Below, piece by piece: positions 40,564-62,229 of a DNA stretch of 63,750 nt. This DNA comes from Bispira polyomma. Its lineage: Eukaryota. The notes beneath the pieces were generated by a model. The model was not told the DNA's origin, made no database searches, and saw only the letters and a list, made by a program, of their open reading frames with translations. The stretch spans positions 65,410,001-65,473,750 of the forward strand of contig OZ287755.1 in the NCBI GenBank assembly GCA_965649765.1, in the 5' to 3' direction. The number at the start of each line of letters is the position of its first letter. The first letter of the stretch is position 1. The position numbers and the translations under genes are program-made.

Positions 40564-40822
40564 GGGGCCGCAGTGGCCTAGTGGTTAACAAGCATTGTGC
40601 TTCACAATCACTGGTCTCTCACCTCTGGGCGGCGTGAGTTCGAATCCTGTCGATACCTATGTGGGAAAGGTGGTGGTTCCTTACTGTGGGCCGCTGGTTT
40701 CTCTGCTTAACCTTGACCAACTGTATGCAGTGTTTCCTCCAGCGTTTCCAACTACCCGTCCCAATATAACCTACTAAAAGGTACTAGAGTGGACGTTAAA
40801 TATCCAAATTCAAATTCAAATT
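40564..40822 (+). mobile_element. Full-length tRNA-derived SINE, family A
   Basis: Pol III A box (TGGCCTAGTGG), B box (GTTCGAATCC), (CAAATT)n tail, and target duplication ATTTAGGA (40556-63, 40820-27). Confidence 0.93.
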
Positions 40823-41353
40823 TAGGAATACAGATCTTTACATAAAACCTTAAACTTAGGGATAGAATATATTTCTAAAAGACAATATACCATAACGAAC
40901 AAATTATGTTGTAAGACCAAAATAAAAAGCTAGGACAAGATTGTCAGATTTTTTTGGGGGAGGTGAGATTTTAATTATTTGCACATGCTTTAACGTTAAC
41001 AGAATGTTGAGTAATATATAAGTTTTTCTGTCAAGTAAAGATATGAACAAGGGATTACTATGTTATTAACCACATGTAAGAATGTCGTAATACATAGTGA
41101 TAAATGAGAGCATAAATTATGGGGGAAAATCGCCAGTAAGTGTTGGTATCTTGTAATATCACTCTTTGGCTTTGATTGTATTGTTAGTACCTTAACTAAA
41201 GACCAAAGCAACAAAATTACAACAATTCCCTGAGGTTCCTTAGCCTGCCACTGTGGTGACAAGCCAACCAAAAAACATAAACAGCAAACAAAACCTCCTT
41301 CGTGAGGGCAAAAATGGTATTAGTTATTCAAACAATGCTGTTCTGTGTTTCAG

Positions 41354-41597
41354 GATAACCCCGACATACCTACAAGACAACATTCTAGCAGCCTAGAGTT
41401 AGGTCCATCCATGGAGTACATCCTCACATACCAGCCAGCCATCAGACACAACTCACACCACTACACCAACAGGGTGAGGTGGAAACAGAAGAAGCTGAAG
41501 GCTGATTGGTGGAAGGTGTTCCTATGGGGATGTGACGTAGAGGTCTTCACTGGCATGGCTCAAGCACTGCTAATTCTAATGTTGCTCAAAACTACTG
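41354..41597 (+). CDS. Membrane-protein gene, first identified coding exon (in-frame ATGs at 41411 and 41555; signal peptide MAQALLILMLLKTT)
   Basis: Acceptor TTCTGTGTTTCAG|, frame open across the exon, donor G|GTAAGT at 41598 in phase 1. This matches the phase-1 start of exon 53522 and gives MAQALLILMLLKTTACSWC. The link across the 11.9-kb intron is inferred. Confidence 0.72.
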
Positions 41598-42151
41598 GTA
41601 AGTCTCTCTCACATCTTAAAAACAGTGGTCCCTTCATAGATCCCTTTATATATATATGTCCCTGTCAATAAAGGTGACCATGACAGTATGATCAGAGCGG
41701 CTTAAAGCGACATCACAACCCGATGTAAACTCAAATTAAAGTCCTCAAAGTAATCACTCATGTTCTCTCTGTTATGTCAAACTATATGTTTTAACCACAT
41801 GGGGGTGAATATTTGAGAAAAGGGAGATTTTAGGATGACAGGAGAAGACAAAGAAGACAGTAAGGCTCCACCCTAAATGTTTTTGTTATATCAGAAGAAT
41901 TCTTGTCACCAAGCCAATTTGCAACTATATTGAAAGTACTTCTCATGACTACAACAGCATTAGGGTTTAGTTTTATCCTCAGCATTTAGCGTTATGTATT
42001 CGTATGCGAAATCAAATATTGCGGCACCCTATCCAGTGAACTCCATAATCGTTCCTCTGGTGCCACACACTAAAGGTTCCGTGGCATTGTGCATTTATAG
42101 AAAACCATTAATCGTCATTATCTCTACTCACACTACACTAAAATGTGTAGT

Positions 42152-42310
42152 GCAGCCAAACCTGTCCTTTAGAACTCCCGCCATGGAAATACATGGTCAT
42201 TACAGACAGGTGGTCTTTAGATACTGATAAAACATATAAATACCTTAAAAGGGAATATTTACAGACACAGGTTTCTTAATACAGGTGGTTTCCCGAAGTG
42301 GTTTGGTTGT
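42152..42310. mobile_element. Degenerate Tc1/mariner-pogo-type MITE
   Basis: Ends CAGCCAAACC / GGTTTGGTTG, with internal repeated ACAGGTGGT motifs. Confidence 0.5.
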
Positions 42311-44625
42311 GCTATCAATTATGTGTCACCAAAGAAAGAATTTTACAAAGACTACATAGAGTTCCTCACTTTTACTAGACTGTCATTTCAATACAACTGC
42401 ACTAGATGTTGGCATTACTAATGTACAAGAGATAAATATTATGTGAAATTCTTATAGAAATCGAGATCCTATAAATATAATCTCAAAGAACTTCAAAAAA
42501 ACTGGATTATACAAAAGCTAATATTGAGAGATTAATCATATACTGAGATGGATGAGTGAATTTGTTGATGTCCGGTGACAAGTTGACTGAGCTTTAATTG
42601 GCAGCAAATGAAGTGCATTTCCCTTGCCGCGAGAGAGGATGGAAGCTAGAAGGGGTGGGTGGGTTGCTTATGTAGACACATGTACTACTTAGTAACAGCC
42701 TTGCTCCCCTACTAGAACTCACAAACTGAAGATATAATGAAAGATAAGACTTCATTTTCTACTCCAATTGCAAAAGCATTACTACTGATATAAATTCTAG
42801 CTTCATTACCTTTTATGACGTCAACTGTTCGCCATATGAGATGTGACTACCAACATCTGAAATGTAATTTTTTTTTTTTTTTTTTTTGCGGGGGGATGTC
42901 TGTGCAGTTAGTTTCTTACAACTTATTGGCACTTATTCTGTCGTTGTCTGGAAATCAAAAACACCCTTTTCTTAAACTGACCAAAATAACACACCCGGTA
43001 ACACACACAGTACAACACCCAGCATCCTGTCACACTCCTGTCAGGTAACCATGGCAACCTTGATGAATAGTGATGCAGTAATTTTCTGGGATATTCCCTG
43101 TAAAAACATGAAGTACACCACACATCCACTTTTTTGATGAAGATGGAAGAAAGGGAAGCACAGAAAGATGTTGATTGGATTTTCAGCAGCAAATTCCCAA
43201 TAAAAGGAAATTTGTAAAAATCTGATTTTGAGTAATCAGGATGGTGTTTTATCTGGGTTTATTTTTAGTTTTTAGTTCATTAGAGAAAAATTTGTATTGA
43301 AATTCCCACCGGATATGAAAGAAACCTCACAAACAGAATTACTAGAGGTTTCTTGTGGATGATACCCTACCAACAAGTTGCTTGTATTTTGTTATTTTTC
43401 TTTACAATGACAAAAGTGCAAAAACAGATTAGGAATTGGTAGACAAAATACATGACAAGGGATACAGCAATATATAATGACAGTAAAATGAAACAAAAGA
43501 GTGTTTTTGGTACCAGCAAATTTAATCATTTTAACTAGACGTCCTACAAGTGAACCAAGAGCGCTTTATTGCACTTCATAATGAACTGTCACTTCAACTA
43601 TTGTCATCTTTTACAGAACTAATTTATACAATTTTTTTTTTTTTTTTTTTTTTGGGGGGGGGGGGGAAAGGGGGGGGGTTCCTTGGTATTTTACATATAT
43701 ATTTTTTTATTATCAAGATATATTATATTTGTTATACATAGGGAGTCAAATATAGTTTCAAAAAATCAATTGATAGGAGCAGAACATCCCAAATGTTATG
43801 CACGTAGTTATGACCAAATATTGCTGTTTTTTCCATATTTCCCAGGTTAACCCTATTGTAATTAGAGATTGTCTCAGATTTAACAGCCACACAATTATTA
43901 ACCCCTCTTAAACATGCAAAGTGCAGATGAATCCACAATAAATTACGACTTCCACTAATCAATTAACTGGAAGTGATTTGTCTAGCTCTTTCCCAATACA
44001 GTTAAAGTAGCAAGATTAGCTAGAATCAAAATTGACCAAATTATCATTTCTAAGCGATACACAAGAATGATTTATCATTATGGGACATATACTTTTCACA
44101 CAACATAATAATAAAAGTTAAAACATTTTCATTGTCGATTAATTTCTACTATTCAAGTTCATCATCAAAAATTGGAAATTGGAACAAATACAGTAAATGA
44201 TCAAAATTGTATGAAGCTTAGTCAAATTGCATTTTCTTGGTAATACAAGAAAAAGTATAAATCTATATTATCTGTGAAAAACTAGATTTGTCTTTTTGTT
44301 GTATGATAAGTTACTTCCGATCACAATATCCCCTTTAACATACCGATTCCTAAATACATTTTAATCAAAATTAATATAAATATAATATTAGGCATCATGA
44401 ATACATGTGATAGATACCAAACTTTGGTTAATGACATTAGTGAGTAGAAAAAAATTATTTAATTTGAATCCACAAAAAAGTTACAGAATTTTTCAATATG
44501 GTATTTATTATTGATTTTATTGGTTTACAATATTGTAATGAATGTTATAACAAAATCAAGAAATTTAGGAATGTGTTCTTTGTGGGGGTTTCCCCTTTTT
44601 ATCTCCAACTACTCCTCCTCTGTGT

Positions 44626-44867
44626 AAATTTGAATTTTGGATATTTTACGTCCACTCTAGTACTTTTTGGGACGGGTAGTTGGAAACGCTGGAGGAAACA
44701 ATGCATACAGTCGGTCAAGGTTCTGCACTGAAACCAGCGGCCCACAGTAAGGAACTACCACCTTCCCACATAGGCATCGACGGGATTCGAACTCACGCCG
44801 CCCAGAGGTGAGAGACCAGTGATTCTGAAGCACAATGCTTGCTAACCACTAGGCCACCGTGGCCCTC
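44626..44867 (-). mobile_element. Full-length SINE family A
   Basis: Reverse complement of 40564-40822, with 14-bp target duplication CTCCTCCTCTGTGT (44612-25, 44868-81). Confidence 0.95.
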
Positions 44868-45149
44868 CTCCTCCTCTGTGTCTTCTGACATTAAAAAGTG
44901 ACTGATTCAAAAGTTCTGAAACTTATAAAACATTTACCCACCAAATCTTGTCTACTAGACCCTTGGCCTATTTCACTCGGTAATCCATGGCCTATCACTT
45001 GTTGACAGTGCATTCCCTGTTGTCTTTGACATACCTGCAAAATAAATATCTCAAAAACCATTTTTTTTAACCCACACATTTTCAAACATACAATTTTTAT
45101 CAAAGGCTTGATTAAAATGTTGAACGAAAACATCAAAAAGACAATGTCA

Positions 45150-45445
45150 CACCAGGCTCTTTGAAACCTACAGAACTTTGAATATCAGATGATTCTCCTA
45201 ACCTGTAGAATGATCTGCCTCATGATATTCGCACTGCCTCCCCACCTATTCTAGACTGAAACTCAAAACCTACCTTAAAAACTTAGCAAGGCTTTTGCAC
45301 CTTCTTCTCCCTTACTCTCTGGCTTCTCTGTGGTTATGACCCCGTTATGTCCAATGGCTATATGAATTTATGAAAATTATTTTCTACCTAGTGTGCCCTA
45401 CTTACGATGATTGAGTGCTATAAAAGTTAAATTAGATTAGGTTTA
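45150..45445 (+). mobile_element. Degenerate L2-type LINE 3' end
   Basis: Translates to PNL*NDLPHDIRTA...LKLKTYL, matching the L2 ORF2 terminus APxLWNxLPxxIR...LKTYL. Ends GCTATAAAAGTT plus a (TTAGA)n tail. Confidence 0.6.
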
Positions 45446-45822
45446 GATTAAAACATGGTCATGTTTAAAAGGCAGACAAATGCCCCCCCCCCCTTCCCCC
45501 CCCCCCCTCTTCCACACACACAAAAACCAAAAATAAAAAAAAATAATAATAAATAACCTGATATACAGAATAATCTTTGCCCATGTAATGCAATGAAAAG
45601 AGAAGGTGTAATTTGTGATCAAGTCAGCCAACTACAAGATGCTAATGAAATCCACCCCTGGATAGAAATTATTGACCACTTTTTGGATTTTGACTTACTG
45701 TGGATTATTGTCAGATGCCTATCCAATATTATATTTCAAAAGTTTAAAACTTTTTAGCTGGACTTACATATATTCAATAATGTCAGCTCTTTTAAAAATG
45801 AAACAGCCTTTTCCAATATGCT

Positions 45823-45976
45823 AGGTCCACAGTGGCCGAGTTGTTAGCAAGTTTGGCATCTAATCACAGGCTGTCACCTCTGTGTGGGTTCTCCTCCCTC
45901 AAGTGACAAATGCTGTGGGCCTGTCCCAATATGACCCTGGCTGTTAAACAGGACGTAGAACCCTAAACTTTGACTG
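45823..45976 (+). mobile_element. Short tRNA-derived SINE
   Basis: A-box-like GTGGCCGAGTTGTTAG head. 3' part CCTGTCCCAATATGACC...GGACGTAGAACCCTAAAC is related to the family A 3' end. Confidence 0.65.
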
Positions 45977-46021
45977 TGTAAAGGCCAGGTTGAAAGAGTT
46001 TGAGGCGGACAGACAATGAAT

Positions 46022-46262
46022 TTGAATTTGGATATTTAACGTCCACTCTAGTACCTTTTAGTAGGTTATATTGGGACGGGTAGTTAGAAACGCTGGAGGA
46101 AACACTGCATACAGTTGGTCAAGGTTCTGCAGAGAAACCAGCGGCCCACAGTAAGGAACTACCACCTTTCCCACATAGGCATCAAACTCACGCCACCCAG
46201 AGGTGAGAGACCAGTGATTGTGAAGCGCAATGCTTGCTAACCACTAGGCCACCGCGGCCCCC
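46022..46262 (-). mobile_element. SINE family A (small deletion through the B box)
   Basis: Reverse complement of 40564-40822, with 16-bp target duplication CGGACAGACAATGAAT (46006-21, 46263-78). Confidence 0.95.
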
Positions 46263-49200
46263 CGGACAGACAATGAATGGAGGAGGCTGTATATATGACA
46301 TTATTATTAGATAGGCGGGCTTTACTTGTAAGTTAGCAATGATTTTTTTATATTCTAAAATACTTGTAATTCCGAGTTTGCCGGGCATTAATAAAAAAGG
46401 CTGAACCATTAACAGCTCACCTCTGACGTCACATTTATATACATCATCACCAAATAAAGATTATTGTATTGTGACGTCACATAGTCTCAAGATGTACGCA
46501 GAATACCATATTTGTAAATCTCAGCGAACACTTTCTGTTTAACATATAAGGGTATTGATCCAGCAAATACGAAATATTTTTTTAAGCACTCTGTAAATTG
46601 TGTAGACATATAAAGTAGTTTAAAACATCTCTATATAATCACTTAAGTGTGTTCAGCATGTTCAGTGATGCAAGATTTAGCAATTGTAATATTACCCTTG
46701 GTAATAAGTGATGTTAATAATGAGAAATAGACATATTATATTATATATTAGTTTGTTAAGATTAGTCAATTTGTTAGGTGTTATTTGATCCTGTGAATTT
46801 GATTCAGTATTGTTTATACAATAAACAGTAAAATATCAGGATTTATAGTAGTTTTCAGGTTGTTTTTTTATATCTCATAATAAAAGTAATAACGTGATTT
46901 TTTACGGGTGTTATAGGTTTTAGCGGCAGGAAATTAAGCCCTTTGGATGTTAATGATTAAAAACCCTCCAAAATCACATTATTGTACTATTGTCTTGAAG
47001 GAGTCAGATTAGTTTCGAGTTAACAAATTAAGTTAGAGTTTTTACGATTCAAAAAACTAATACACTATATTCACTTTTATTCACTAGTTTGCACATCACA
47101 TGACACTTTACATGTTTTTGCATTACACCACCTGTCCCTGACTAGACTTCAAGTCTGCCACTGTGGCCAAATGGCTGACACTCCCCACTTAGCACAATGC
47201 AGGGAGCCTAGATTCCAATCTCTGTCAAAAAGCTGATCCCACCTTACACGGTCTTACCACAATATACTGATATACAGATATACTGAGCATAAGACATATT
47301 TACAGGTACATTAAAAGGCAATGTCATACCTCTATACCATATCTAGAACTGTAAATAAACCTTTTGCTGGCAGGTGTGTGTAAGAACAATAATGGAGAAA
47401 TACGTGTATATGTCGTTTCAGTACTTTATATCTCGATGTTTGGAATATCAATGACATGTTTGCTACTGCATTAGTTACTGCATATGTTTCTTTAATAATA
47501 AGCCATATTTGGAAAAAAAGAGAAATATTTTACCACAAAGAACCACCTGCAACACATGGTACAGAAATACAAGAAAATAATTCCAAATTATTCTAATACC
47601 TAGTACTGTAGATGCTAAAACAGACAGAAAATTTGAAATGCAAACATTGTGTTATATGCTTTAAGGTTATTCCAATTCTGGGTGATCAACTGATAATATC
47701 TAACCTGTGTTTACTTGGTTAGTGACATTTATTACAAACTTTACTACCTAGCTTTAAACAAATGATCCCCCATTTGATTGAACAAGAAATGACAGTAATT
47801 GGAAATATCTGGCAGTATTCTCTAACAAATCTTAAACTCACGTCAGACTGATGCTCAAATCTAACAACATTCTAATATACATAAAATATTGCTGCATATA
47901 TGAAATCAATGCTGAAAGCTCTATTAAAATGAATAGCCACAAGTATGTTATTTTCCTTTGAAATAGTCACACATACCGTTCACTTGAGTGTGGGTTTTAT
48001 CTTTGGAGTGTCTTTGGAGAATACATGCCATGGGGTTAAATTGCAGCATGCATGATTAGGTGGGGTTAATAGTAATGATTCAGTACATTAAGGCCAAGGT
48101 CTCGGGTAAACATGGAACAGTCACTACAGCCTTATAGAACATTAAATCTCTTCAAACCTGGAATTATTGTATAAACTCATTTGCTCAGATGACATTACTG
48201 TCAAAACTGAAATTTTTAACTGGCATAAATGTTATTTTATATTTTCACTTTTGTCCATTTTTACTCATATACATTATAAATACAAAGACTTACCTTTTCA
48301 TCAATAATAAGAATTTTCACTATATAAGCTCCTTAGTGAAAATAATTAAAATTAATTCCTGGTTATCAATCCCTCTTATATAGGGAGACTTGGTAGTGTT
48401 ATGGTAACACACACGCCTCCCAGCTTTGAAGACATGGTTTTGAATTACAATCCGGTAGTTTATTTTCGAAAGTTAGACATAGACTTGCTAAAGGTCAGTG
48501 GGTTTGCACAGCAGAAAAAAACCTTTGACTAACGACCTTCTTCTGAATCCTACACCATTGCACTTCTGGTGATATGGCACAAGTTATGTTGGAAGCGACA
48601 TTAAACTAAGCCATGCTCACATACATAGTACTTTCTCTGCATTAAATGCTCCAGCAATTTGTCATGATTTGGCAACTCTCTCCCTTTGTTGTGGAGTGTG
48701 GAAATCTATCAAATGTGTAGTTAGTGAGTGAGAGAGAGGTATCGAATATATTTACGGACTTGCAGTACTTCAAGTATGATGCCACCTACAGTTAGGACTA
48801 CTAAGTAAACTTACATGATATTAACAGTCACAATCCAACTCTCACTACTTTGTGAATCTTTCATTATAGGCACCTATTCTGGGGCAGGAGAACAATTTAA
48901 ACTTATCTCTTCAAACTTTCGTATGTCCCATAGTTCCCTCCCTGTACATTTTCACATACTTTCTCCTTGTTTGTTGGACTCGATCAGTTAATTGATTCTG
49001 TCGTCGTTTCAGAAGATGCCTTGCATTAAAATACAAAATGTGATACATGTCCTTTAGCTTCTTTTGCTGGTGGAGGAATAGATCAAAAGAAAAAAACAAT
49101 AAATGTTGGATCCAGATAGAAGGGAGGATTTTTGAACGTTCTTTCACATTTTGTTTTTCTACTCTGGCACCTTGGCAGAGGTATACTCTGTTACTGAGTG

Positions 49201-50929
49201 TACTTGCTGTTTGTTAAAAGGCTGTATCAGTAGTCATGGCTTGCCTGTATAGTTTCTTGCAGTACATAATTAGCTGTTATTTCCAGGTTGTGCTCCACAA
49301 AATATCACACAGTCAATATGTCTCTGGCATTAATGATGAAACAGATCCAATGGCGATTTACTCAGATTTGTTAGGTGGCCTCTACCCCTTTCACTACATG
49401 AGTATAAATATACACACTCTCCCACTTGATCAAGAAGGGTGCTATAAGGTCCCAGCTTTACTGAGACAACAAATTACTCTCTCCATAGATCAATGTAACG
49501 AAACTAAATAAGATTGTTATGGTAAATGGTTTTAAAACTATATATAGCTGGCAAAGATGTAGTGATTCATAATTATTTATTCTATAATCGTACCAAAAAC
49601 TGTGCATTAATGGTTTAAACAATTAATTATAATTGTAAAAAAGAAAGGATGGAAAAATTAATTATGTATAAATATCTTATCCTATAACATGCACTCATTA
49701 CACAAGTTGGTAATACAATTGGGGTTCCTATCACTTTGGTCATATTGTGATGGCCAGATATACTGGCGGAGGAAAGCAGTACAATTTGCACCAGAAAAAA
49801 CCCTGACTTTGGGCAAAAATCAGGCAATCTTTGCCACATAGATGAAACAGTGACTTTCGTTCAAACTGTCCTCTCAGAGGTGAGAGACAATTGATGCATA
49901 ATTATAAACACTAGGCCACCACCGCCCTCCGAATAAATTAAAATGCTTGAATATGGAGTTAGTTGGGGAAGAAAGTTTGAGTCAGGAACATACAAAAAAC
50001 GAAAGTGAAAGTTGGAATTACGAACATCCCAAAAGCGAAAGTTGGCATCAGGAACATATCAAAAACGAAAGTGAAACTCCACATAACCATAGTAAGTCTC
50101 AGCTACAAGTAAATTAATCTTTGTCAATGCAATAATTTGCCAAGTATATTGCTGATAAAAGGACAACAACCAATGATGAATTATAAAAGAGAAATATTTT
50201 ATTAAGGCACCTCAAATGGAAACAAGAAAAGGGTATAAAGTATTTTAAAAAATAATTGTGAAACAGCCTCAGATTCTACTGTAAATTTAGAGATTTCAAC
50301 AATTTAATTATCTTTCCCGTATTTACACTCCAATAAAAATACAGGTTATACCTCTAAGTTGGGATAGCAATGATTGATGAAATCCTGGATTCTAGATGAA
50401 TAAATGAAGGAAACAAAAATGTAGTAATTTAATTATATTAAAAGAGAGAACCGCCACCTTTAATGTAAGCCTAATTTAATACGTCCGTAAATTAGACTTT
50501 AACACAATGTGATGGTTGCATAATCTGATTAAGGGAAAAAATAGGCCCATGCAAGATTTATTACAATCAGAATCACAACCTATATTTTTTATTGGCGAAG
50601 CCTGTCTTATTTGTCAGAGGCAGTTGTAAATCAAATACCATGTGGACTGTAAAGCTTTTACAACCCAAAGAATTTATTTATTTGTATATAATTAGGTTAA
50701 ACGTCACTTTTAAAAGCTTAGGTCAATATCACAACGGCCAGATTTAACGGTAGAAGAAACCCATGCTGAAGCACTGTAATCTACAAACCGACAGAAAGTA
50801 CATGACATATTTTCTCAGATAAAAGAACAAGCTAGATTTAAACCTACATTGGGGACCAGCCATTGTGAAGCCAACATGTCAAATCACTAGATTTGTGCTT
50901 TTTGTATTGCAATATGGATTTAGAAGGTG

Positions 50930-51420
50930 TTCTATTGTTGCTAGGTAGCTTCCAAAGCTCAACATTAAAATTAAAACACAAAGTGATAGTCCAACATATA
51001 CATAGCCAAGTCATAAGGAAGGTTATATTAATGACCTGTGGTTAGTAAGTAAGTTTAAAAAGGTGAGAAAAAGGTATTTGTTGCGATCTCAGTTCAACTG
51101 GGAGGTTTTTACAAATAACCTAGTAAGAGCCAATGATAAAGCCGCCCATACCCAGCCATTCTGGTGTGTCTGACAGAAGAGTTTATTACTTCTTTTAATT
51201 GTTGCTGAAAGACAACAGAAAAGCTAGGTAAGAAGGCTAATGAAGATATTCAGCCTTGAATATGGTGACATGGATTGCAGCTACAACAGAAAGTGGAAAC
51301 ATTAATCCTGGTTCGTTTGAGATCTGTAATATGATAGCAATTTGTAATGTGCGCATCAAAATTAGGTCCGAGGGTAACACCTAAGCTCTTGACATTATCA
51401 GAAGGCGATGTATATTTTTC
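50930..51420 (-). mobile_element. Degenerate L2-type LINE fragment
   Basis: ORF-track peptide SPSDNVKSLGVTLGPNFDAHITNC matches the L2 ORF2 motif PSxxVxNLGVxLDxxLSFxxHI. A downstream NLPVELRS remnant is also present. Confidence 0.65.
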
Positions 51421-52224
51421 CCCCTTTTTCTTGCAGTACTGTATCATCTGTTTCAAGTTTGGATATGTTCACCTCCAATGGATCAAAATAAGTCCATGCA
51501 AATATATAGCAAAAAAGATGTTCAAAAGCTCTTTATTGTCACTAGTGAGAATCAATATGATGCACTATTCTGCCATAGCACCCCAACATTTCTGTGATAA
51601 ACATTCACCAGTGTGTCTGTAGTTTTGAATTGATGTATACAACACAGGGGAGTTCTTATTATTTTATTTCATCTTATATTTTATATTGTAGTACTGTTTA
51701 TAATGACTACCTGTTCAGAACTGGTGAGCTTTCCCTGTATATTTTGTAACTGGTCTCAGGACCTTTTTGATCCCATACACATTTTATTATCTATTAATCT
51801 TCCAAGGTGTTGTCAGCTTCACCCAAATAATCTGGTTACCTACTAACCTTCCTTAGGCTCTTCTGAACACTCTAACACGAATAAAGGGGGAGGGGGTGGT
51901 TAAAAAGTTACAATTAAAAACAGAAGCAGCTACAACTAAATCATTTGTTTTGATCACAAAAATTATTAGTAAAAAGTAGTTTTTAAGCTAATGGCCAAAA
52001 TGCACCTAATATAGATGCAGTGTCAATGCTTAACTTATGCATACAGGAGTAGGTTTTTTATACTTCAAACAAACACTTCATGTAACACTTAAAAGCAGAA
52101 ACCATGACCTACTGACAACAAGTGCACACAATAATTTTCTCACACAGGCTGCCTCTTCAATATCACAAAAGGCCCAATTTATTTACTCCCAAACCAGCAC
52201 CAGAGCAGCTGTTCTCTCTTAGTC

Positions 52225-53105
52225 ATTGCATGATGTCTAAAAGTTAAAGCCCTGTTTCCATACCCATGTAAAAAGCCATCCCTTACTTGTGATTGCACCA
52301 TCTCTAAAGGTTAATGTCCTGTTTCCATACATCGGTACTTTGTGGTTACATCATCTCTAAAGGTTAATGTCATGTTTCCATACATCAGTACTTTGTGGTT
52401 ACACCATCTTTAAAGGTTAATGTCCTGTTTCCATACATCTGTACCTTGTGGTTACATCATCTTTCAGGGTTAATGTCCTGTTTTCATACATCGGTACCTT
52501 GTGGTTACATCATCTCTAAAGGTTAATGTCCTATTTCCATACATCTGTACCTTGTGGTTACACTATCTCTAAAGGTTAATGTCATGTTTCCATACATCTG
52601 TACTTTATGGTTACGTCTTCTCTAAAGGTTAATGTCCTGTTTCCATACATCTATACTTTGTGGTTACATCATCTCTAAAGGTTAATGTCCTGTTTCCATA
52701 CATCCGTACCTTATGGTTACATCATCTCTCAGGGTTAATGTCCTGTTTCCGTACATCAGTACCTTGTGGTTACATCATCTCTAAAGGTTAATGTCCTGTT
52801 TCCATAAATCTGTAACTTGTGATTGCATCATCTCTGATGTTTAATGTCCCATTTAGACACACACGTAAAAGTCATCCATATATATCATTAAAACATGATC
52901 ACTAAACGTTAATGCCCTTTTTCCATACACGCATAAAACATCATCCGTGCCTGGCGATTGTATGATTTCTAAAGGTTAAAGCACTGTTTCCATAGGTACC
53001 TTGTGATTGTATGATTTCTAAAGTTTAATCCCCTGTTTCAACACGGAGATAAAAGTCATCCCTGAGATTGCATGATGTCTGGAGGTTAATGCTATGTTTC
53101 TATAC
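52225..53105. repeat. Intronic minisatellite: ~10 homogeneous 53-bp units flanked by longer, older units
   Basis: CTCTAAAGGTTAATGTCCTGTTTCCATACATCnGTACyTTGTGGTTACATCAT with 53-bp period from ~52302 to ~52830. Confidence 0.95.
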
Positions 53106-53521
53106 ACACACGCATTGGTTAATTGATTCTGTTGCTGTGCTTTAGAAGATGCCTCACATCAATGAGGCACGTTAAAACTGCATAATACAATACAAATGCA
53201 ATCAAAGTCATCTATACCTTGTGATTTCATAGATAATACATATATCAGAAAGTTTAACTGCATTATATTTGATGTGACCACAATCTCCTAATTCAGTTTG
53301 TATGGTACATATATCAAACCACTAGATTTTATTAGATTATATGTGATAGCAATCTCCTGGGTTAATTTTTATGATACAAAGTATCAGAAAGCTTGATTTC
53401 ATTGGATTATATGTTATAACAATCTCCTGGTTCAGCATATTAGGAAACTAGATTGAATTCGACTTTTAAATTGTGTGTGCAGTTAGTATGATTTGTGTAC
53501 CTTCCTTTTGTATTTTTGTAG

Positions 53522-53694
53522 CATGCTCTTGGTGTGACCTTGATACCAGTGACACTACCATCACAGACAGTCAGGGCTACCCACATAGTGTGTACATCAG
53601 TGTCACACGTGATGGCAGTGTGTGGATCAGGGTGGGTGTAGACTACATGTCTGATGACTGGGTGTATGTGGATGAACATTCCAAGAAATTACAG
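53522..53694 (+). CDS. Coding exon 2 (ACSWCDLDT...VYISVTRDGSVWIRV...KKLQ)
   Basis: Pyrimidine-rich acceptor TTTTGTATTTTTGTAG|, phase 1. Ends either at a GC donor (CAG|GCAGGT, 53695) or at a GT donor (53699); see findings. Confidence 0.85.
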
Positions 53695-54381
53695 GCAGGT
53701 AGATTTATATACCAGAAGTGGATTTTTGACCAACTTACTTGCTCTGATTTCCCCCACCAGTGAACTGCATGTCGTGGTATGACACAAGACATCTAGAAAG
53801 TAATGTTAACTAAAATAAGCCACAAGTTATTATACCATGCATTTTTAACACGGTGGGCTTCTGTGGCATAATGGTTTATGACTCGATCGGGTGATTAAAG
53901 TGTGCTTGGTTTCATCTTCCAGTTAATGCCTCATTGGTCATCATCCTTTGAGTTTGTCTTTGAAAGTTTAATAATCGAAAGCATGTCAACCTGAACGTTA
54001 TTTCACAATGTCTTCTGTAACTATTTTGTGTTTATAGTTAGTGCAGTATTTCCATGCATTGCAGTATCTCCATATATTTTGCAGTATATCTCCATATTTC
54101 CTCATAGTCAAAACATTAATTGGCCTATTTGAATGAATAAAAACAACCAAGAGAGATAAAGATAGGTTTCAGGATGACTTTTGCTGAACATTTCAAATCT
54201 GTGATAGCGTTTCACTGGGGTTAGGGAGAGGTGAGGGTGAGTGAGGACTATAGCTTCAAGTGGGCATCCCTGAGCCAACATCTGCCTATAAGCGGTATAC
54301 CACCAACTCTCTCTCTCTCTCTTCTAACATGTATCCCAGTATGTATCTCAACAGTGGCAGATGCTGTGATTGTCTCATAGA

Positions 54382-54609
54382 TTTGAATTTTGTCAGGTTT
54401 TACGTTGCTTTCAAAGGCTAAGAAATATATTTTGATGGCCAAATTTAAGGGTGGAAAAAACCAGTGCTGAAGCAGTTTAGACTGCCAACCTATGGCAAGT
54501 ACCTAACAAATTTTGACACTTAAAGGAATGAATGGGATTGAAACCCACATTGTTGAGATGTCAGTGATTGTCACGCTAACACTTCTAACCACTAGGCCAC
54601 CGTGGCCCC
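54382..54609 (-). mobile_element. Full-length tRNA-derived SINE, family B (others ~50680-50890 -, 58249-58430 +, 61545-61730 -, 61731-61943 -)
   Basis: Head GGGGCCACGGTGGCCTAGTGGTTAG on the - strand, (AAATTC)n tail, and 12-bp target duplication TTGTCTCATAGA (54370-81, 54613-24). Confidence 0.9.
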
Positions 54610-55361
54610 GATTTGTCTCATAGAAGAAGTTTTACAGTATATATTTTATTACATGTCAATATACATTTCAATCAAAGGGGAGATTCTCGCATATATCAAT
54701 GTACACACTATTGACATCAAGGTTACGCGGTTGGCATATAAGAACAGATTATGTGACAAATAATGTATGTTTTGCAGAAGGTATTAATTGATGATGCCAT
54801 TGTCGGAATTGTTGTTTTAATGGAAAATTTAGCTGGAACATATTTGGTGATGAAAACATTAATAGTAATTCATTTAAAGTCACTTTTACTTTTTGCACAA
54901 TATCATTTTAATTTATACCTAGTGAAATTTGTATTTTCTCAGTATTGCAGGTTAATGCTTATATTTAGTGTAATTTGCATCTGATGACATACCCAAATTA
55001 GTAGCTATGGATATATTGGCTTAAAGTCTGTATAATCATTGCTTATGAAGTGATTCAAAAAGCCGAAAAGACAAGAGTGTTCTACAAAACAGGACCCCGA
55101 CTTTATAAAAATTCTCAAAATAACAATGTAACCTTTTGGTTTCCACCACATTTACAACCAACATATTCAAATTCCTCACTGAAAGCTCCGTTAAAATGAA
55201 TGATAGCAGGTCTAAGTTTTTCTTATCAATAGAGAAATGTACATATTTGGTAGTTGAGTTTTTGTTTAGGACCTTTGCTAAATGTAATCCCTATAGTTTG
55301 TAATGTTTACAATTATTTTAATGGTGACTTTCTTTTTTTTATACACATTATTTATTTTCAG

Positions 55362-55586
55362 GTGAATATTCTGTCACCAGAAACCATTTCCATGTTGCCT
55401 TTATTTAACTCCACTGACTACTGTGTCCAGACGGATGTAGACCTTAAGGTGAAGATGATCAATGGGTGGCACCCTTCATTTATCAAAACCTACACGCCTT
55501 CCACAAAACAAAGCCATATTCTCACCTTCCAAAATGACGGCAACTGTAACAAGAAAACTATACTGTCTCTGGCCAGCAACAAACAG
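55362..55586 (+). CDS. Coding exon 3 (VNILSPETI...FNSTDYC...LASNKQ)
   Basis: Acceptor TTTATTTTCAG|, 225 nt open, donor CAG|GTAGGG, phase 0. Confidence 0.87.
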
Positions 55587-57193
55587 GTAGGGCGATAATA
55601 GAGTATGTAAGGCTGAAATTAATAAAAACAAGAATAGCCTTTAAAAAAGACATGTCGGAGGGAGGTGAAGGACGTTTTAGTTAAATCTATTATACACTAA
55701 CACTTTTACAGGTCTATTCTGGTTCCGAGTGACATTTCAGGCTTTAGTAGTAACCATTTCATTTAGCGATTTGACATATTTTCTAATTAGGTAAGCTGTG
55801 ATGCGTTATTTTTAATAAAGGTATGTTACCTTTTTCAACGTAAAACATTGTAGTTGTGCACCAATTAATTCTTTCATTTTTCTGATGAAATTATCTTGTA
55901 TCAGACCACCTATTATAAGAGAAATATATTAACCATAAATATGAGACAAATAGAACATTAACCATAAAAAACAAGGTATATGTTTTCATGAATATTATAA
56001 ATAAATCTACACCCCTTAAATGGTTCATCTTATACCCGTGGCATGCCAGCAACATGGCAGCCCCCCAGCTAATGCTTACGTTAGAAGGTAGTCAACCTAA
56101 ATAGCACAAACCATTTTTGGCCATGTTTTAAATTGGCTAATACATACAAAAATAGCAGAGTTGGCAAAGCAATCATATAAGTACGTAGGACGATAATATA
56201 GCATGTTAACAGTGGTTGCTCAAATGACTTAGTTGGAATAACTGTATTTCTTGTTGTTTAACTAACTCTTGCATTAAAATAGTTTTTTGTTTCTTTTTTA
56301 TCATCGTCACCAGGTTAACATATAAAAACTACTGCACCAATTTCAAGTAATTTGGTTAGGGAATTGGACATGGGCCCAAAAATCCTTTTCATTTTATAGC
56401 ACATCTTGAATAAAGGACTTACTCAAAATATTTTTCTGGTGTTTTTTATAAGGCATCGCCTGATATAGATTTCACTCTAAAAAGGGCACGGCCGTGTTGG
56501 AAATATGTATTGCCTTCATGGATTGGTTGAAATAAATGAACCAAGCAAAACAAAAGGGGTATCAGATTTATATTATCAGGTGATTATCAGGAAAAACTGG
56601 GAAGCGTGAAGCGAGGAAAGTCTCTGATGAATCAATGGAGCCCAGGTCCGACTAGTGCAGAAAGAGTATCTGTTATTTCACTATAGGAATAACCAATGAC
56701 ATAGCTCGCTATACGGCAATTTTTACCATGATTGGAGGCGTAGTAACACAAAGGTGAAGCCTGAGTGTTTCTACGTCTCCTATTCTAATATGACAAATTA
56801 AAATTATTTCTTGGTTCCACCTTTTTTACTGCATAATTGTGTAAATGAAGGAACTATATTCACTGGGCATCCAGTACTTTACAGACAAAATTAGTCTATT
56901 TCCGTCTATGGGTATACAGTAATTTTTACCGATGCTGTCGGCCAATCAGAATCGCGGATACAGCCGTTTCATGTTAGAATCTTCTTTGAAATACAATTTT
57001 TTGCCGAATTGAGGGGGATGTCACTCATACACTGTGCACCAGCCTCTTTTTCAAAAGACTACTCTTGTTTGCCCTGTGGCTCCTTGGCAGAGGTATGCAC
57101 TTCAGTGAAAATCTTTCTACTTGTCATTAAGTCTTGCTCTCCATACAAGAGTATTGTCTCTCTTTCTATTTATTGTTGCTTTGTCTTACTCAG

Positions 57194-57282
57194 GGTTTGG
57201 TGTGTACAGGTGGGGAGATTCACAGCTGTGGCCTCAGGAACTTACCCAGGAGAGACAGGGTGTCCAACATTACATTCCTTAG
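57194..57282 (+). CDS. Coding exon 4 (GLVCTGGEIHSCGLRNLPRRDRVSNITFL-R), read in a different frame from the ORF-track ORF
   Basis: Acceptor TTTGTCTTACTCAG|, donor AG|GTAAAG. The 89 nt convert phase 0 to phase 2, exactly as the next exon requires. Confidence 0.82.
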
Positions 57283-58465
57283 GTAAAGTTTAGCAATTAT
57301 GTAGTTCAGTAAGAAATAGTAATAGAAGCTCTGATGTCTAATGAAGATGTCCTCTATGACGTATTAGTTCAGACCTTAGTTCAGTGATAAGAGTGATTTA
57401 AGGTGCAATGTATAACTGGAGACTTACTCTGACATAGCTGTAGATATATTGTTTATGCAGTTTAGTGTACCACTAACTGAAGTTTGGTAGTATAGATCTC
57501 TAGAAGCAAAACCACTAACACACAAAAACCAGTATGGAACACAAATGTACAGAAAGCATTACAGCAATACAGACCAAGATACTAATAACACATCCACAAC
57601 CATCTTTAGTTTTTGCCTTTCAAGCTAGCACGGTTTTATTGGTTGAACCAATATGAGCAATAGCAGATATGAATAGTTCAGTTGTTTATAGTTAACCATT
57701 TTGAACTGGTTACATACACCTACAATTTGTCACTTTAACTTGGTGGACAAGACACTGGTTTTAGACCATGGATGACCTGGCTTTTATCCTAAGTAAAGAC
57801 TCATAAATGAATCGTTGATTGTCCTCTGATGTTGGGTTGGCTTTGATATAATCACCGACTGACAAACCTGTTCATCCTAAAGTTTCTTTAAGGTCAAAAT
57901 GCTTGTATTATTGCATATACATTGTAAACTACATAAAAGTAAATAACTTGTATGTGTTTGTGAGATATTACTTAATAGCCACCAAATTTGTCGCTTCAAG
58001 TAAACTGATTGAATATCCAACCTAGAGTGTTTCCATGGTGATGTGTCAATTTGAGTGGTGTATCTATTTTGCAAAAACTGCATATTAGTAGCCAATAATT
58101 GTTGTAGAATAAACCAACTGTGTATGAACAATATTTTTTTGTTTTTTAAAATACATAACACTTGAATGATACAGTTATAACACCACATTCAGTTCAGCCG
58201 AAGGGGTACTTTGGTGTGTATAGTGATCAAAGTAGTTATTAAAAGTCTGGAGGGGCCGCGGTGGCCTACTGGTTAAAGTCACTTGCTAATCATCATTGCT
58301 CTCTCAGCAATGTGGGTTCGAATCCCGTCCCTTCATGTGGGAAAAGTTTGTCAGTTATAGTAATTTAGCGATGGTTTCTTCCACTATTAAACTGTTGAAA
58401 GCAAAATAAAACCCAACTAAATTCCAATTCACAGAGCCTGATGATTTTATATATTCCTGTTTTAG

Positions 58466-58596
58466 ATACATGGTATTTGACCCAGAAGGCTCAGACCATT
58501 ACCGGTGTCAACAGCCAAAGAGTACCACCTCCTACACCTTCCTGGGCTCCTATTACTACGCCTATATCAAAATAGCCTCCTGTCCTCCGCCTACTG
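58466..58596 (+). CDS. Coding exon 5 (YMVFDPEGSDHYRC...YYYAYIKIASCPPPT)
   Basis: Acceptor TTCCTGTTTTAG| phase 2, donor G|GTAAGT phase 1. Confidence 0.88.
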
Positions 58597-59133
58597 GTAA
58601 GTATGACTTAAACTTTGATACCTGGGCTCTTATTACTACACCTTTATCAACATAGCTTCCTGTCTTTCTCCTACTAGTAAGTAGGAGTAAAACTTTGGTA
58701 AAACTTAGGTAAAACTTTGATCTATCACAAATATCATCACAAGTAACTAAATATTCACATATATGTTACATATATTTTATACATAACAGAATGAATTAAC
58801 AAAGATATAACAATAGTGATAGAATGTATAACCTTAGACGAATTTCATGACTGTACATTTTTATTACTTTACTACTCAGTATAAAATGTGAATTGTGCAT
58901 TTATCATATAGTAACACATCATACTACAGATAAAACCCTGTTGTCCGAACATGTTAGGACAGCAAAATTTTGTTCAGATAAAAAATAGTAAATAAATTAG
59001 AAGAGGCATTTTAATATAAAGTAATAGGAAAATATTAAATTGGAAGAGAGGAAATGTCTTCATAATTTGACCATTTGGATAAGAGAAGTGCAGATAAAAG
59101 AAGTTCCACACTATTAACTCCTCTTCCTATTAG

Positions 59134-59625
59134 ATTCCAGAATGTTTGGTCACCGTGTAAAGTTACGCCCAGAGAGTGATGCAGATGGTAACATGGTGAT
59201 CATTCCCGATCCAATACAGACTGCTCTTGCATCGGGCGTTGTGATTGGCTGGCAGTTGTACGCCAAGATCATATCATTCCAACATGAAGTCTTTCTTCAG
59301 GTGTGGCGCAAGAACCCCGTGGATAGCGGGCGCTATATTCTGGTGTCCCAAACAAAGTTCAAACCCACCAGTCTCCGCTTAATGGAGCTAGCCTATACTA
59401 AGAGAGAGGACTACATCCTTCTAAAGAAAGGGGATCTCCTGGGACTATACTTCACTCAGAAGAACCCCATCCCTTACTCCAAGGTGCCATGTGCCTCAGA
59501 AGACCACAGGTCTCTGGTGATGGAAGACACTCCACGAACGATGGAACCGGGCAGAGCCTACAGATTTGCACGTGTACCTTATGGCCTAAATGCCTGCAGA
59601 CAGTACTCCTTTACAGCTATACTAG
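59134..59625 (+). CDS. Coding exon 6, single-exon beta-rich extracellular domain (DSRMFG...GWQLY...LQVWR...YILV...GDLLGLYF...CRQYSFTAIL)
   Basis: Longest ORF in the window with raised GC. Acceptor CTCTTCCTATTAG| and donor TAG|GTAGGA; symmetric phase 1-1, 492 nt. Confidence 0.93.
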
Positions 59626-60560
59626 GTAGGAGTGTGTTATGATTATTTGGGTTATGGGAGATACAGCTATACTATGTAGGATTACATAATGATTGGGTTA
59701 ATAGGAGATATACAGCTATACTGGGTAGGATTACATAATGATTGGGTTAATAGAAGATATACAGCTATACTGGATAGGAGTACATTATGATCGGGTTAAT
59801 GGAAGATATACAGCTATACTGGGTAGGACTATATTATGATTGGGTTAATAGGAGATATACAGCTATACTGGGTAGGAGTACGTTATGATCGGGTTAATGG
59901 AAGATATACAGCTATACCGGGTAGGACTATATTATGATTAGGTTAATAGGAGATACAGCCATACTAGGTAGGACTATATTATAATTAGGTTAATAGGAGA
60001 TACAGCCATACTAGGTAGGAGCATATTAGGATTGGGTTAATAGGAGATACAGCCATACTAGGTAGGAGTAGATTATGGTTGGGTTAATAGGAGATACAGC
60101 CATACTAGGTAGGAGTAGATTATGGTTGGGTTAATAGGAGATATACAGCCATACTAGGTAACAGTAGATTATGGTTGGGTTAATAGGAGATACAGCCATA
60201 CTAGGAAGGAGTAGATTATGGTTGGGTTAATAAGAGATACAGCCATACTAGGTAGCAGTAGATTATGGTTGGGTTAATAGGAGATACAGACATACTAGGT
60301 AACAGTAGATTATGGTTGGGTTAATAGGAGATACAGCCATACTAGGTAGGAGTAGATTATGGTTGGGCTAATAGGAGATATAGCCATACTAGGTACGAGT
60401 AGATTATGGTTGGGTTAATAGGAGATATAGCCATACTAGGTAGCAGTAGATTATGGTTGGGTTATTCGTAAGTATAGCTATATTGGGTAGGAGTACATTA
60501 TAATTGGGTTTAAATTTATAATTTACTGCTATACTAGGTATGAGGGCATTATAGTTGGGT
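59612..60560 (+). repeat. Intronic minisatellite, 47-49-bp unit, about 20 copies, beginning inside exon 6
   Basis: TACAGC(C/T)ATACTAGGTAGGAGTAGATTATGGTTGGGTTAATAGGAGA; period 47 measured at 60001/60048/60095. Confidence 0.95.
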
Positions 60561-61143
60561 TAATGGGTGAATATTTGCAGGCAGTACCCATTTATAGACA
60601 TTCAATTTTTCAGTGCATTATGATTGGGTTAAAATGGTAGTTGCAAAGGGAGGTGATATTTGCAGGCATCACTCATTTACAGCTATACTAAGTTTTGGGG
60701 GTATTTGCAAATTCTTTTTCAGTTTTAATGTAAAAAGATTAATATAGAGTATAATCTTTACTTGGAAATTAACTTTTTAATGCCCAAGCTCATTTGCCGA
60801 AATAGCCAAAGTTATTTAGGAAAAATTGTCCACGTGTGACCGCATTCTCGAAAGATTTCAAGCTCAACAAGCTGAAATTGAAAGTCCAGATATCTCTGGC
60901 TGGAGTTAAGTTAAGTAGAATATGAGTGCATATTTGAATTCAGAACTGAAAGCTCTATTAAAATGAATGGTCACAAGTATAGGTCATCTGCATATACAAG
61001 GACTTTTACATAGCCTTCATTTGAGTTAAGTCTGAGTTTCTGTCCAGAATACGCCCCTGGACATGTTTTAAGATTTTTATGGTGAGTTTATATAAATACT
61101 AAACCCTGCCATATGCACATCTATTCCTTTTTTTTTATTTCAG

Positions 61144-61421
61144 CTAACAAAACAGGGACTAAGTTAATAGAGGACTGGCAGTGCCCTAATGACCCTCCAG
61201 CCGATGGCCATATATCTAAAGACTACCTGCTACTGGAGAGTTCCCACCAGGCCTCTCCAGAGAGTTATCGGCCTACTGTACCTAGCCAGCCAGTAGAGGA
61301 CCCCAAAGACCCAGCAGACATGGTGCTACCTATTGAGTATATACTGGCCATCATCGGAGGACTGTTATTACTCATGACATTTATAGGAGGAATCTCTTAC
61401 TACAGGGCCATCAAAAGCTGA
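61144..61421 (+). CDS. Terminal coding exon: Pro/acidic stalk, transmembrane helix (ILAIIGGLLLLMTFIGGIS), short tail YYRAIKS*
   Basis: Strong acceptor (T-run)ATTTCAG| phase 1, a hydrophobic run of ~20 aa followed by basic residues, TGA at 61419-61421. Confidence 0.92.
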
Positions 61422-62223
61422 AAAAGAAATATAATTTAACATCAAAGGCTGAGATTGGAAATTATGTCATCATCTTATATCTAATCTAATAGTTTTTATG
61501 GCACTAAATATTCTCTCTAAGAATTTGAATTTAGTTTCGTTTAAAACTTAAGTCACTTTCAACAACTTTGATAATATTGCAACATCAGATTCAATGATGG
61601 AACAAACCCGTGCTGAAGCAATGCAAACCACTGATCTATTACACGTACCTGACAAACTTTCCTACATGAAGGAATGAACAGGATCCACATCCACATTGGT
61701 GAGAGGCTAGTTATTGTGAAGCAAGAGTATATTTGAATTTGGTTTATACGTCGCTTTCATTCACTTAGATCATATCAGCTAAATTTAACGGTGGAGGAAA
61801 CTAGTGCTGAAACAATTAAAATCACTGGCCTACAGCAAACACATGAGAAGCTTTTCCGCATGAAGGAATGAACAGGATTGAAATTCATATTGGTGAGAGA
61901 CCAGTGATTCTAAAGCAGGCGTTTCTAACCTCTAGGCCATCATGATCCATCTTTTCCCTAAGAGGACTCAAAACGGCCATGACATTCTACTTTTAGGCAA
62001 AAATATTCATAATAGAATGGGTATAGCCAAGGTCACCAACAAAAAAGTTAGCATTCACAGCCAAGGGGAAATTAGGGCTTACATATTGAATTGGGTTGAA
62101 AAATGTCAAATGGAGCCAAATTTGAAACAGCTTGATAATTGTTTATAAAAAGTAAATAATCCTAATAATCACATGCTACCTATATACTTGCTATCATTGG
62201 TGATTGCTGTTACTCATGACATT

Positions 62224-62229
62224 AATAAA
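62224..62229 (+). promoter_or_regulatory. Candidate polyadenylation signal AATAAA
   Basis: First canonical AATAAA I find downstream of the stop codon; usage not demonstrated. Confidence 0.3.

Follow-up and report, generated by a model that had tools for sequence, protein, structure and literature searches.

The gene and its exons

The window analysed here, 63,750 nucleotides of Bispira polyomma contig OZ287755.1, carries a genuine seven-exon animal gene, common to segmented worms (Table 1). The initial annotation had joined seven coding exons into a 1431-nt reading frame specifying 476 amino acids (aa), and a recount of the exons, with their one terminal stop, bears this out. Its six junctions do form a phase-compatible chain, but it passed over a peculiarity of the second: five of the introns are GT–AG, whereas intron 2 is GC–AG, and the 476-aa splice product requires this GC donor at the end of exon 2. 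The nearest GT donor, after position 53698, shifts the frame and leads to a stop at codon 89. When donors are scored against 13 orthologues picked from 50 domain-1 proteins, the GC donor comes out best, with a mean of 188.9 bits; three in-frame GT donors reach 161.9, 174.7 and 177.8 bits, and the frameshifting one 65.7. All of these alternatives were rejected, as were hidden cassette exons. The GC is present unchanged in contigs of all three runs compared, which are DNA contigs, introns included, and possibly derive from the assembly's own sample.

Table 1. Features of the gene, numbered from the first nucleotide of the window
Feature	Position	Strand	Remarks
Exon 1, 5' part	41354..41410	+	Follows an acceptor-like AG (41352–41353); frame open, not coding-like; probably 5' UTR
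Probable 48-codon N-terminal extension	41411..41554	+	Upstream in-frame ATG; coding-like; basic stretch, then hydrophobic segment
Exon 1 from the start first annotated	41555..41597	+	Predicted signal-peptide core; phase-1 GT donor
Exon 2	53522..53694	+	Opens domain 1 with a helix and a beta-hairpin, its fibrinogen/COLFI-like end; GC donor
Exon 3	55362..55586	+	Domain 1: helix, beta-sandwich strands; invariant D97, W108, P110
Exon 4	57194..57282	+	Domain 1: C151, C159
Exon 5	58466..58596	+	C-terminal end of domain 1, with a conserved acidic loop (D182, G185, D187), the closing strand and C216
Exon 6	59134..59625	+	Phase 1-1; encodes domain 2, a mobile extracellular module without a name; invariant cysteines C340 and C375
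Exon 7, coding part	61144..61421	+	C398 within a conserved start; then a variable stalk, the TM helix (~450–471), a 5-residue tail and the stop
Putative 3' UTR	61422..62229	+	Polyadenylation-like hexamers at 61815 and 62224; end putative

Junctions 2–6 are backed by homology: single-exon domain-1 orthologues align straight through junctions 2–4, mostly with 0–4 gaps, and one Capitella protein covers junction 6. Junction 1 has a phase-1 acceptor that lies at the identical place in 4/4 orthologous loci showing that region, and exon 1 is the sole candidate in the 63 kb scanned upstream to combine an ATG, a hydrophobic stretch and a strong phase-1 donor. In other species domain 1 occupies a single phase 1-1 exon, a feature that had also been overlooked; the intron that follows exon 3 is present in one further locus (L070).

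The amino terminus

No stop interrupts the reading frame between the acceptor at 41354 and the end of exon 1. Within it, 41411–41554, one of four segments put through a shuffle test, has an in-frame coding score reached by none of 1000 stop-free dinucleotide shuffles and a frame contrast reached by 11 of them, while the in-frame score of 41354–41410 is reached by 631 of 1000. Because this upstream stretch is in frame and coding-like, the ATG at 41411 suggests a longer, 524-aa form with an N-terminus that the initial annotation missed. Exon 1, upstream extension included, is without orthologue support.

The probable 48-aa extension could alter the topology of the protein. Were translation to start at or before 41411, and the first hydrophobic segment to escape cleavage, the protein would be anchored twice and its domains would form an extracellular loop, an arrangement that the coding-like in-frame extension and the basic stretch ahead of the hydrophobic segment would suit. 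Against this, the hydrophobic core has only about 15 residues (8-residue mean 3.4) and runs into a small-residue site of the kind typical of signal cleavage, and among 20 distinct sequences the exon-7 product, from stalk to end, is anywhere from 88 to 121 aa long. We regard double anchoring as highly improbable, and would place signal peptide cleavage just ahead of W18–C19.

Domain 1

The first domain, of 210 aa, has seven near-invariant cysteines, each present in 95–100% of aligned rows, and sequons in 27/29 near-full rows. Its predicted fold (pLDDT 86.7, pTM 0.80, from an alignment of 53 rows) has a beta-sandwich in the middle and is almost all beta past residue 80.

The initial annotation took domain 1 for a divergent fibrinogen-like domain. 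Part of that claim stands: the best Foldseek matches of the model are indeed fibrinogen-like domains (E 5.6e-3, probability up to 0.69), but with a TM score of 0.22 and an rmsd of ~15 Å, and collagen C-propeptide (COLFI) domains come ahead of them by Z-score. COLFI ranks first in both VIA structure-alignment runs, and collagen C-propeptides give the best full-length alignments (Z 4.8), followed by fibrinogen gamma (Z 3.6). None of 48,161 structure chains reaches a Z of 5, below which, the aligner itself warns, a match may mean no more than a common arrangement, and unrelated sandwiches at 4.1–4.6 come level with the best score. No intelectin chain is among the fold-search matches listed, the viral structure library gives no match at E 0.001, and sequence searches of the PDB, including those with domain-1 profiles, find no chain under E 0.05.

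The sequence tests are negative. The Fibrinogen_C profile (PF00147) matches 0/53 domain-1 rows at E up to 1, and its 135 matches across the genome include none at the gene; the profile for the opening motif with its cysteine (NCBIfam NF040941) likewise matches 0/53 rows, with 44 matches in the genome and none at the gene. That domain 1 has a stretch resembling this motif but without its cysteine had been recognized from the start, and the position is serine in 34/34 domain-1 rows. Tests of domain 1 against the genome's own fibrinogen domains stay at background (probability <0.2%, E 0.34–0.4). The COLFI profile (PF01410) fares no better: 0/53 rows, and 8 matches in the genome, none at the locus. 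Since domain 1 fails the fibrinogen sequence tests, it is at best fibrinogen/COLFI-like, outside family membership.

Might the likeness be convergent, and domain 1 an entirely new fold unrelated to either family, carried by a receptor all the same? Sequence profiles at background and the lack of any Z of 5 or more fit this reading, as does the finding that kinase N-lobes, too, match the hairpin part (Z 3.2–3.5). On the other side, two independent aligners put the same superfamily first, and COLFI and fibrinogen chains align from the first element to the last, over model residues 6–205, whereas lectin-type sandwiches cover only 46–196. The non-significant profile alignment with fibrinogen keeps register from the hairpin through the helix and strand as far as the invariant Asp. 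Predicted elements and aligned ranges would suit a fibrinogen-type N-terminal subdomain that the C-terminal strand closes off, though with a Z of 3.0–3.6 and an E of 5.6e-3 at best; where fibrinogen has its ligand- and calcium-binding third subdomain, the comparison is with a model that is almost all beta past residue 80, at a whole-domain TM score of ~0.2. A new fold is a serious possibility, if a somewhat unlikely one.

Domain 2

The second domain is an unnamed mobile extracellular module that occurs in several animal phyla, in keeping with its first description as a shuffled module of no named family: its exon is phase 1-1, it matches no named family, and it is found in tandem arrays and in fusions with astacin, C-type lectin, CUB, EGF and collagen. 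Its two cysteines are invariant, in 90/90 and 89/89 rows. The domain-2 tree comes from a quick tree search, and one sequence (P0017), a repeat-driven chance match, was excluded from the domain-2 alignments.

Folded from the single sequence, domain 2 gives a pLDDT of 32.9. By language-model features, its closest clusters overall (0.95–0.97) are unnamed sponge and annelid proteins, and the nearest named ones, at 0.84–0.87, are PHR, DUF4082 and Lectin_like; scores under 0.9 are leads only. None of the corresponding profiles (PF08005, PF13313 and PF18560) matches any of 90 domain-2 rows at E up to 1. PHR has 10 matches in the genome, none at this gene, and a profile–profile probability with domain 2 of 0.1% for a small PHR set; DUF4082 finds nothing in the genome, where its controls are likewise silent.

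There is a weak sequence link to phage tail fibres. Two distant domain-2 members, of 97 proteins, match the tail-fibre profile phrog_1858 (E 8.8e-12 and 7.6e-7), which the Bispira gene's own domain 2 does not match. Ruegeria phage 45A6 protein ANH49085 combines two repeats weakly like domain 2 with a sialate-acetylesterase-type (carbohydrate-esterase) domain, the repeat similarity being 9.8 bits against a best of 3.8 in 200 shuffles. A scan of viral contigs with P0021 gave three pattern matches, none of them confirmed.

Stalk, membrane helix and tail

The type I layout first proposed, with a stalk, a single C-terminal TM helix and a minimal tail, holds up: hydropathy over 19 residues peaks at 2.36, at about residues 451–469, a short basic tail of five residues follows, and orthologues share the arrangement. 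The TM helix and tail are conserved among them and the stalk is variable; its cysteine (C398) is kept in 24/24 matches covering the position, many of them near-duplicates. Basic residues beyond a hydrophobic stretch speak against a GPI anchor, and since they follow the hydrophobic stretch here, GPI anchoring is less likely. A Tyr-based motif in the tail was rejected as an endocytosis signal: it abuts the membrane and is missing from some orthologues.

ERGIC-53 and VIP36 have a lumenal sandwich, a stalk, a TM helix and a short conserved tail, and the protein's similar layout raises the prospect of a role in the secretory pathway, as a cargo receptor or an assembly factor, perhaps one that handles procollagen through its C-propeptide-like domain. 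The conserved TM helix and tail beside a stalk that is not, and nearest structures that are procollagen C-propeptides, would accord with such a role. The tail, however, has no C-terminal dilysine signal, the motif familiar from cargo receptors of this pathway, domain 1 has no COLFI profile match, and its best Z is shared with unrelated sandwiches; we think the role decidedly unlikely.

Orthologues, range and copy number

Orthologues keep the order domain 1, domain 2, stalk, TM helix and tiny tail, and the closest are about 40–47% identical across domain 1. Of 80 related loci, nine show domain 1 ahead of domain 2, most of the others having too little upstream DNA, and 27 have exon-7 matches. 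Public databases hold the gene in halves, as partial or split models named hypothetical: Capitella ELT88399 (domain 2, stalk, TM helix and a near-identical tail) and Lamellibrachia KAI0240568 (domain 1), each 46–47% identical, together with Ridgeia KAK2185922 (domain 1) and Helobdella ESN90097, are each the probable orthologue of one half.

The protein had been thought lineage-restricted. The two-domain protein is narrow in range, as supposed, but domain 2 is not, occurring also in a gastropod, a nemertean and a hemichordate. Domain 1 has named relatives in annelids only, within a search scope of proteins up to 380 aa, and is absent from all 150 domain-2 protein matches; whole-length orthologues outside annelids are possible. 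Word-based searches of longer proteins with exons 6 and 3 gave no match, and an atlas search with exon 2 no usable one. A full-text literature search found no description of the protein family, though supplements may list members, and a search by accession returned only unrelated statistics papers.

One copy was found in the Bispira polyomma genome, against 135 fibrinogen-family exon matches. This bears on whether the protein might be a membrane-anchored pattern-recognition lectin of innate immunity, with a mode of action like that of fibrinogen-related proteins, ficolins or intelectins. The fibrinogen-like Foldseek matches, the gastropod protein in which domain 2 stands alongside C-type lectin and apextrin domains, and the weak tail-fibre link point that way. 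Immune lectins, though, tend to expand and to diverge fast, as the fibrinogen family of this genome has expanded, while the present gene diverges slowly and was found once; and domain 1 fails the fibrinogen-family profiles. An immune lectin seems quite improbable.

A possible function

Conserved cysteines in domain 1, domain 2 and stalk, together with the sequons, favour an extracellular reading. The sequons and several cysteines originally listed are all there: N88, N172 and N386, and 11 cysteines, in the 476-aa product. We put at about even the chances that this is a conserved type I membrane glycoprotein acting in adhesion or recognition, as the receptor of a conserved partner molecule, a function that we infer from sequence and predicted structure. 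A flexible stalk would present its two extracellular modules to the partner for binding, and with a tail of five residues the protein would depend on another for signalling. Domain 1 is predicted to be a fibrinogen/collagen-C-propeptide-like clasp, its N-terminal helix and hairpin shut by the final strand, and to surround a beta-sandwich for which no close relative has been solved; the domain's seventh cysteine may pair with stalk C398 or with a second chain. Tandem arrays, fusions, and the phage tail-fibre and esterase links suggest that domain 2 is a binding module; its fold may be a jelly-roll. Glycans would be its likeliest ligands, judging from language-model neighbours below 0.9 and a two-step phage link. 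The domain-1 identity among orthologues, and the single copy beside so many fibrinogen matches, favour an endogenous partner, so that the ligand would be the animal's own matrix or a surface glycoconjugate and not microbes.

One can go further, more tentatively. The fibrinogen/collagen-C-propeptide superfamily might have in domain 1 a third branch, one that kept the terminal clasp while a new beta-sandwich took the place of the ligand-binding part, and domain 2 might be a new glycan-binding module common to animals and phage tail fibres, the two making up a disulfide-locked, annelid-specific receptor for the animal's own matrix, cuticle or basement membrane for example. Taken whole, this is doubtful, and on balance unlikely.

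Whatever the ligand, two unnamed extracellular domain families are defined here, and the gene joins halves that are annotated publicly as separate hypothetical proteins. Modular type I surface glycoproteins whose ligand is not known are a common kind in invertebrates; this one, conserved and apparently single-copy, could be tested by knockout in laboratory annelids. With a confident model and no close solved structure, domain 1 is a ready target for structure determination, which could clarify the relation between fibrinogen-like and collagen C-propeptide domains.

Comparison with known domains

COLFI and fibrinogen domains have a known link, and the ends of domain 1 bear a weak resemblance to both, at a best Z of 4.8. 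The COLFI domains of PDB entries 5k31 and 4ae2 are its nearest structures: 126–137 residues align at an rmsd of 5.2–6.0, with residues 6–201 of the model lying on residues 43–246 of the chain at 7% identity. Domain 1, like COLFI, is disulfide-rich and, by prediction, extracellular; unlike COLFI, it stands at the N-terminal end of a membrane protein, and the gene encodes no triple helix, the 476-aa product having no Gly-X-Y run. With fibrinogen and FReD domains, such as those of angiopoietin-like 3 (6eua), fibrinogen gamma (1fzf) and ficolin (2j0g), domain 1 shares a similar order of elements—helix, hairpin, Trp strand, helix, strand—and it differs from them in that the TM score is ~0.2, Z is at most 3.6, and its C-terminal two thirds are predicted to form a beta-sandwich, instead.

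The gene and its splice sites

The source genome, that of an animal, comprises 1.035 Gb in 75 contigs. Seven coding exons splice to 1431 nt and encode a protein of 476 aa: domain 1 is formed by exons 2–5, domain 2 by exon 6, and a stalk, transmembrane (TM) helix and five-residue tail by exon 7. The sequons, cysteines and TM helix reported in the initial annotation are all present in the translated product, and the gene is almost certainly real. Intron 2 requires a GC donor, the flanking bases of which score 7.4 by generic consensus weights, versus 1.7–6.9 for the gene's GT donors. This GC is identical in DNA contigs of all three runs and, among five donor choices compared, it gave the best fit to 13 selected orthologues. 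A nearby GT donor for exon 2 was rejected; no cassette exon rescues it.

Exon 1 is the sole candidate within 63 kb upstream that combines an ATG, a hydrophobic stretch and a strong phase-1 donor. The 144 bases that begin with an earlier in-frame ATG (Table) look coding—none of 1000 stop-free shuffles reaches their score in a three-periodic model whose training set was 11.3 kb of coding DNA from the same genome—and so the protein may be 524 aa long, with a long signal region. The orthologous loci do not include this region. In the same test, five of six true exons are equaled by 0–8 of 300 shuffles, and the short exon 4 by 96 of 300. We consider type I topology very likely; the rival reading is a topology with two anchors.

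Several repeats lie in or near the gene (Table). Each unit of the minisatellite at the end of exon 6 repeats that end together with its splice donor, producing a row of decoy donors, and the short interspersed copies that flank exon 1 could pair in the pre-mRNA.

Table. Features of the gene, its surroundings and related loci
Feature	Coordinates	Strand	Remarks
Window	G000:C8:65410001-65473750		Stretch of source genome
In-frame ATG	window 41411		Possible earlier start
Interspersed repeat	window 40565-40818, 44667-44868, 46017-46263	both orientations	Copies 92–97% alike
Minisatellite, intron 1	window 52286-52849		53-base unit, 10.6 copies
Duplicated exon 5 end and donor	window 58541-58697		80-base period
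Minisatellite, exon 6 end	window 59612-60510		47–49-base unit, about 19 copies
Echo of part of TM-coding sequence	window 62202-62243		3' flank
Rhodopsin-family GPCR exon	L012:1721-2770	minus	G000:C8, about 1.7 kb beyond window; PF00001, E 1.1e-25; oriented toward the gene
Domain-2 paralogue	G000:C3:94029831-94030596	minus	L002, L142, L144; interrupted by short intron
ANH49085	L151:3011-6007		Ruegeria phage 45A6; unannotated, 998 aa; precedes lysis-type genes

Relatives of the exon chain

Exon 6, used as a HMMER query, gave 225 protein hits at E ≤ 0.001. Of the 150 that were listed, two have a match to exon 7 as well, namely Capitella ELT88399 (E 1.6e-16) and one unnamed protein (E 1.2e-13). 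Scanning of metagenome contigs yielded 80 related loci, nine of which have domain 1 upstream of domain 2, both on one strand. At L015, L016 and L031, domain 1 is a single unbroken frame that shares 38–45% identity with the spliced model (best E 9e-60). A profile built from these loci matched 39 proteins out of 3670 candidates (15–380 aa), one from Lamellibrachia among them, with Ridgeia present as a cluster member; the protein P0163 aligns to residues 14–222 of the model with no gaps. Every named relative of the two-domain protein comes from an annelid. Phase-1 sites border both domains in orthologous loci; both are thus phase 1-1 modules, as had been proposed for domain 2. Three introns within domain 1 differ across species, and one is common to the window gene and locus L070.

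Domain 1

Domain 1 has seven near-invariant cysteines—an odd number—and 24 of 24 hits retain another cysteine where the stalk begins. Clustering at 70% identity reduces the 29 near-full rows to only 11 groups, so such counts overstate independence. Of the 53 aligned rows, no more than two share any Pfam, NCBIfam or PHROG family. Given these rows, AlphaFold2 models P0163 (pLDDT 86.7, pTM 0.80) as a short helix and a three-stranded hairpin region, followed by a single helix and then strands.

The domain had been called divergent fibrinogen-like, and this stands only in part. Fibrinogen-like chains top the Foldseek ranking (Angptl3, E 5.6e-3, TM 0.22), but nothing reaches E 0.001, and full alignment to 48,161 chains gives no Z of 5 or more. 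Rank 1 there is the procollagen C-propeptide (Z 4.8, rmsd 5.2, 126 aligned), which a second structural comparison again places first, with fibrinogen gamma at Z 3.6; these values fall inside the aligner's own stated noise level. A secretory cargo or procollagen factor is a rival reading of the protein. Procollagen and fibrinogen chains cover model residues 6–205, whereas lectin and glycosidase sandwiches cover only 46–196, a difference suggesting that domain 1 may be a terminal clasp enclosing a beta-sandwich. The cysteine of the fibrinogen opening motif is replaced by an invariant serine. PF00147 and the motif family NF040941 match 135 and 44 places in the genome, respectively, but not this locus, and profile comparisons with fibrinogen domains stay at background, although one of the alignments runs in register via helix and strand to an aspartate invariant in 46 of 46 rows. 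By the tests run, domain 1 lies outside PF00147 and PF01410; it is at most fibrinogen- and COLFI-like in build, and common descent with those domains seems to us reasonably probable.

Domain 2

Profile searches matched domain 2 to no named family, in agreement with the initial annotation. The closest Atlas clusters (0.95–0.97) are unnamed sponge and annelid proteins, followed by PHR, Lectin_like and DUF4082 (0.84–0.87). Some proteins carry the domain alone, ahead of a hydrophobic C-terminus; others have it as tandem arrays or combine it in mosaics with astacin, apextrin, CUB, kringle, C-type lectin, collagen and EGF domains. Besides annelids, it is present in a gastropod, a nemertean and a hemichordate. 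In a tree of 90 rows made by a quick method, one 27-row clade (SH-aLRT 98) contains all five domain-1-linked rows together with the two that are marked for the stalk-TM exon.

Further copies occur in the source genome (9 and 4 exon matches, the window locus counted). The G000:C3 paralogue is nearest to P0062 and similar single-domain proteins whose C-terminus is hydrophobic, and has no domain 1 inside 20 kb on either side. P0069, P0132 and P0071 carry low-complexity insertions of up to ~500 aa directly after the conserved Trp-Arg strand, which may be real or read-through.

Two distant members match phrog_1858, a phage tail-fibre profile, over the domain core. In the phage protein ANH49085, the N-terminus weakly resembles T7 tail fibres, two repeats bear a faint likeness to domain 2 (9.8 bits versus 3.8 for the best of 200 shuffles, with the broader of two domain-2 profiles only), and a SASA carbohydrate-esterase domain is present.

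Proposed role

Profiles detect no catalytic or signalling domain in the protein. It would be secreted and glycosylated, its stalk displaying two binding modules about 45–75 residues above the membrane, where they would bind a conserved partner molecule; any signal would pass through a separate partner protein, consistent with a conserved TM helix and tail beside a variable stalk. Among the best candidates, which alone were scored, domain 1 has a single copy in the source genome; this, with its slow divergence, leads us to favor an endogenous ligand over the microbial patterns, an immune lectin being the rival reading. A role in adhesion or recognition we put at even chances. Full-text searches of openly available papers found no published description of the protein family, and both domain families are apparently undescribed. 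In its proposed working, the protein resembles other modular type I surface glycoproteins.
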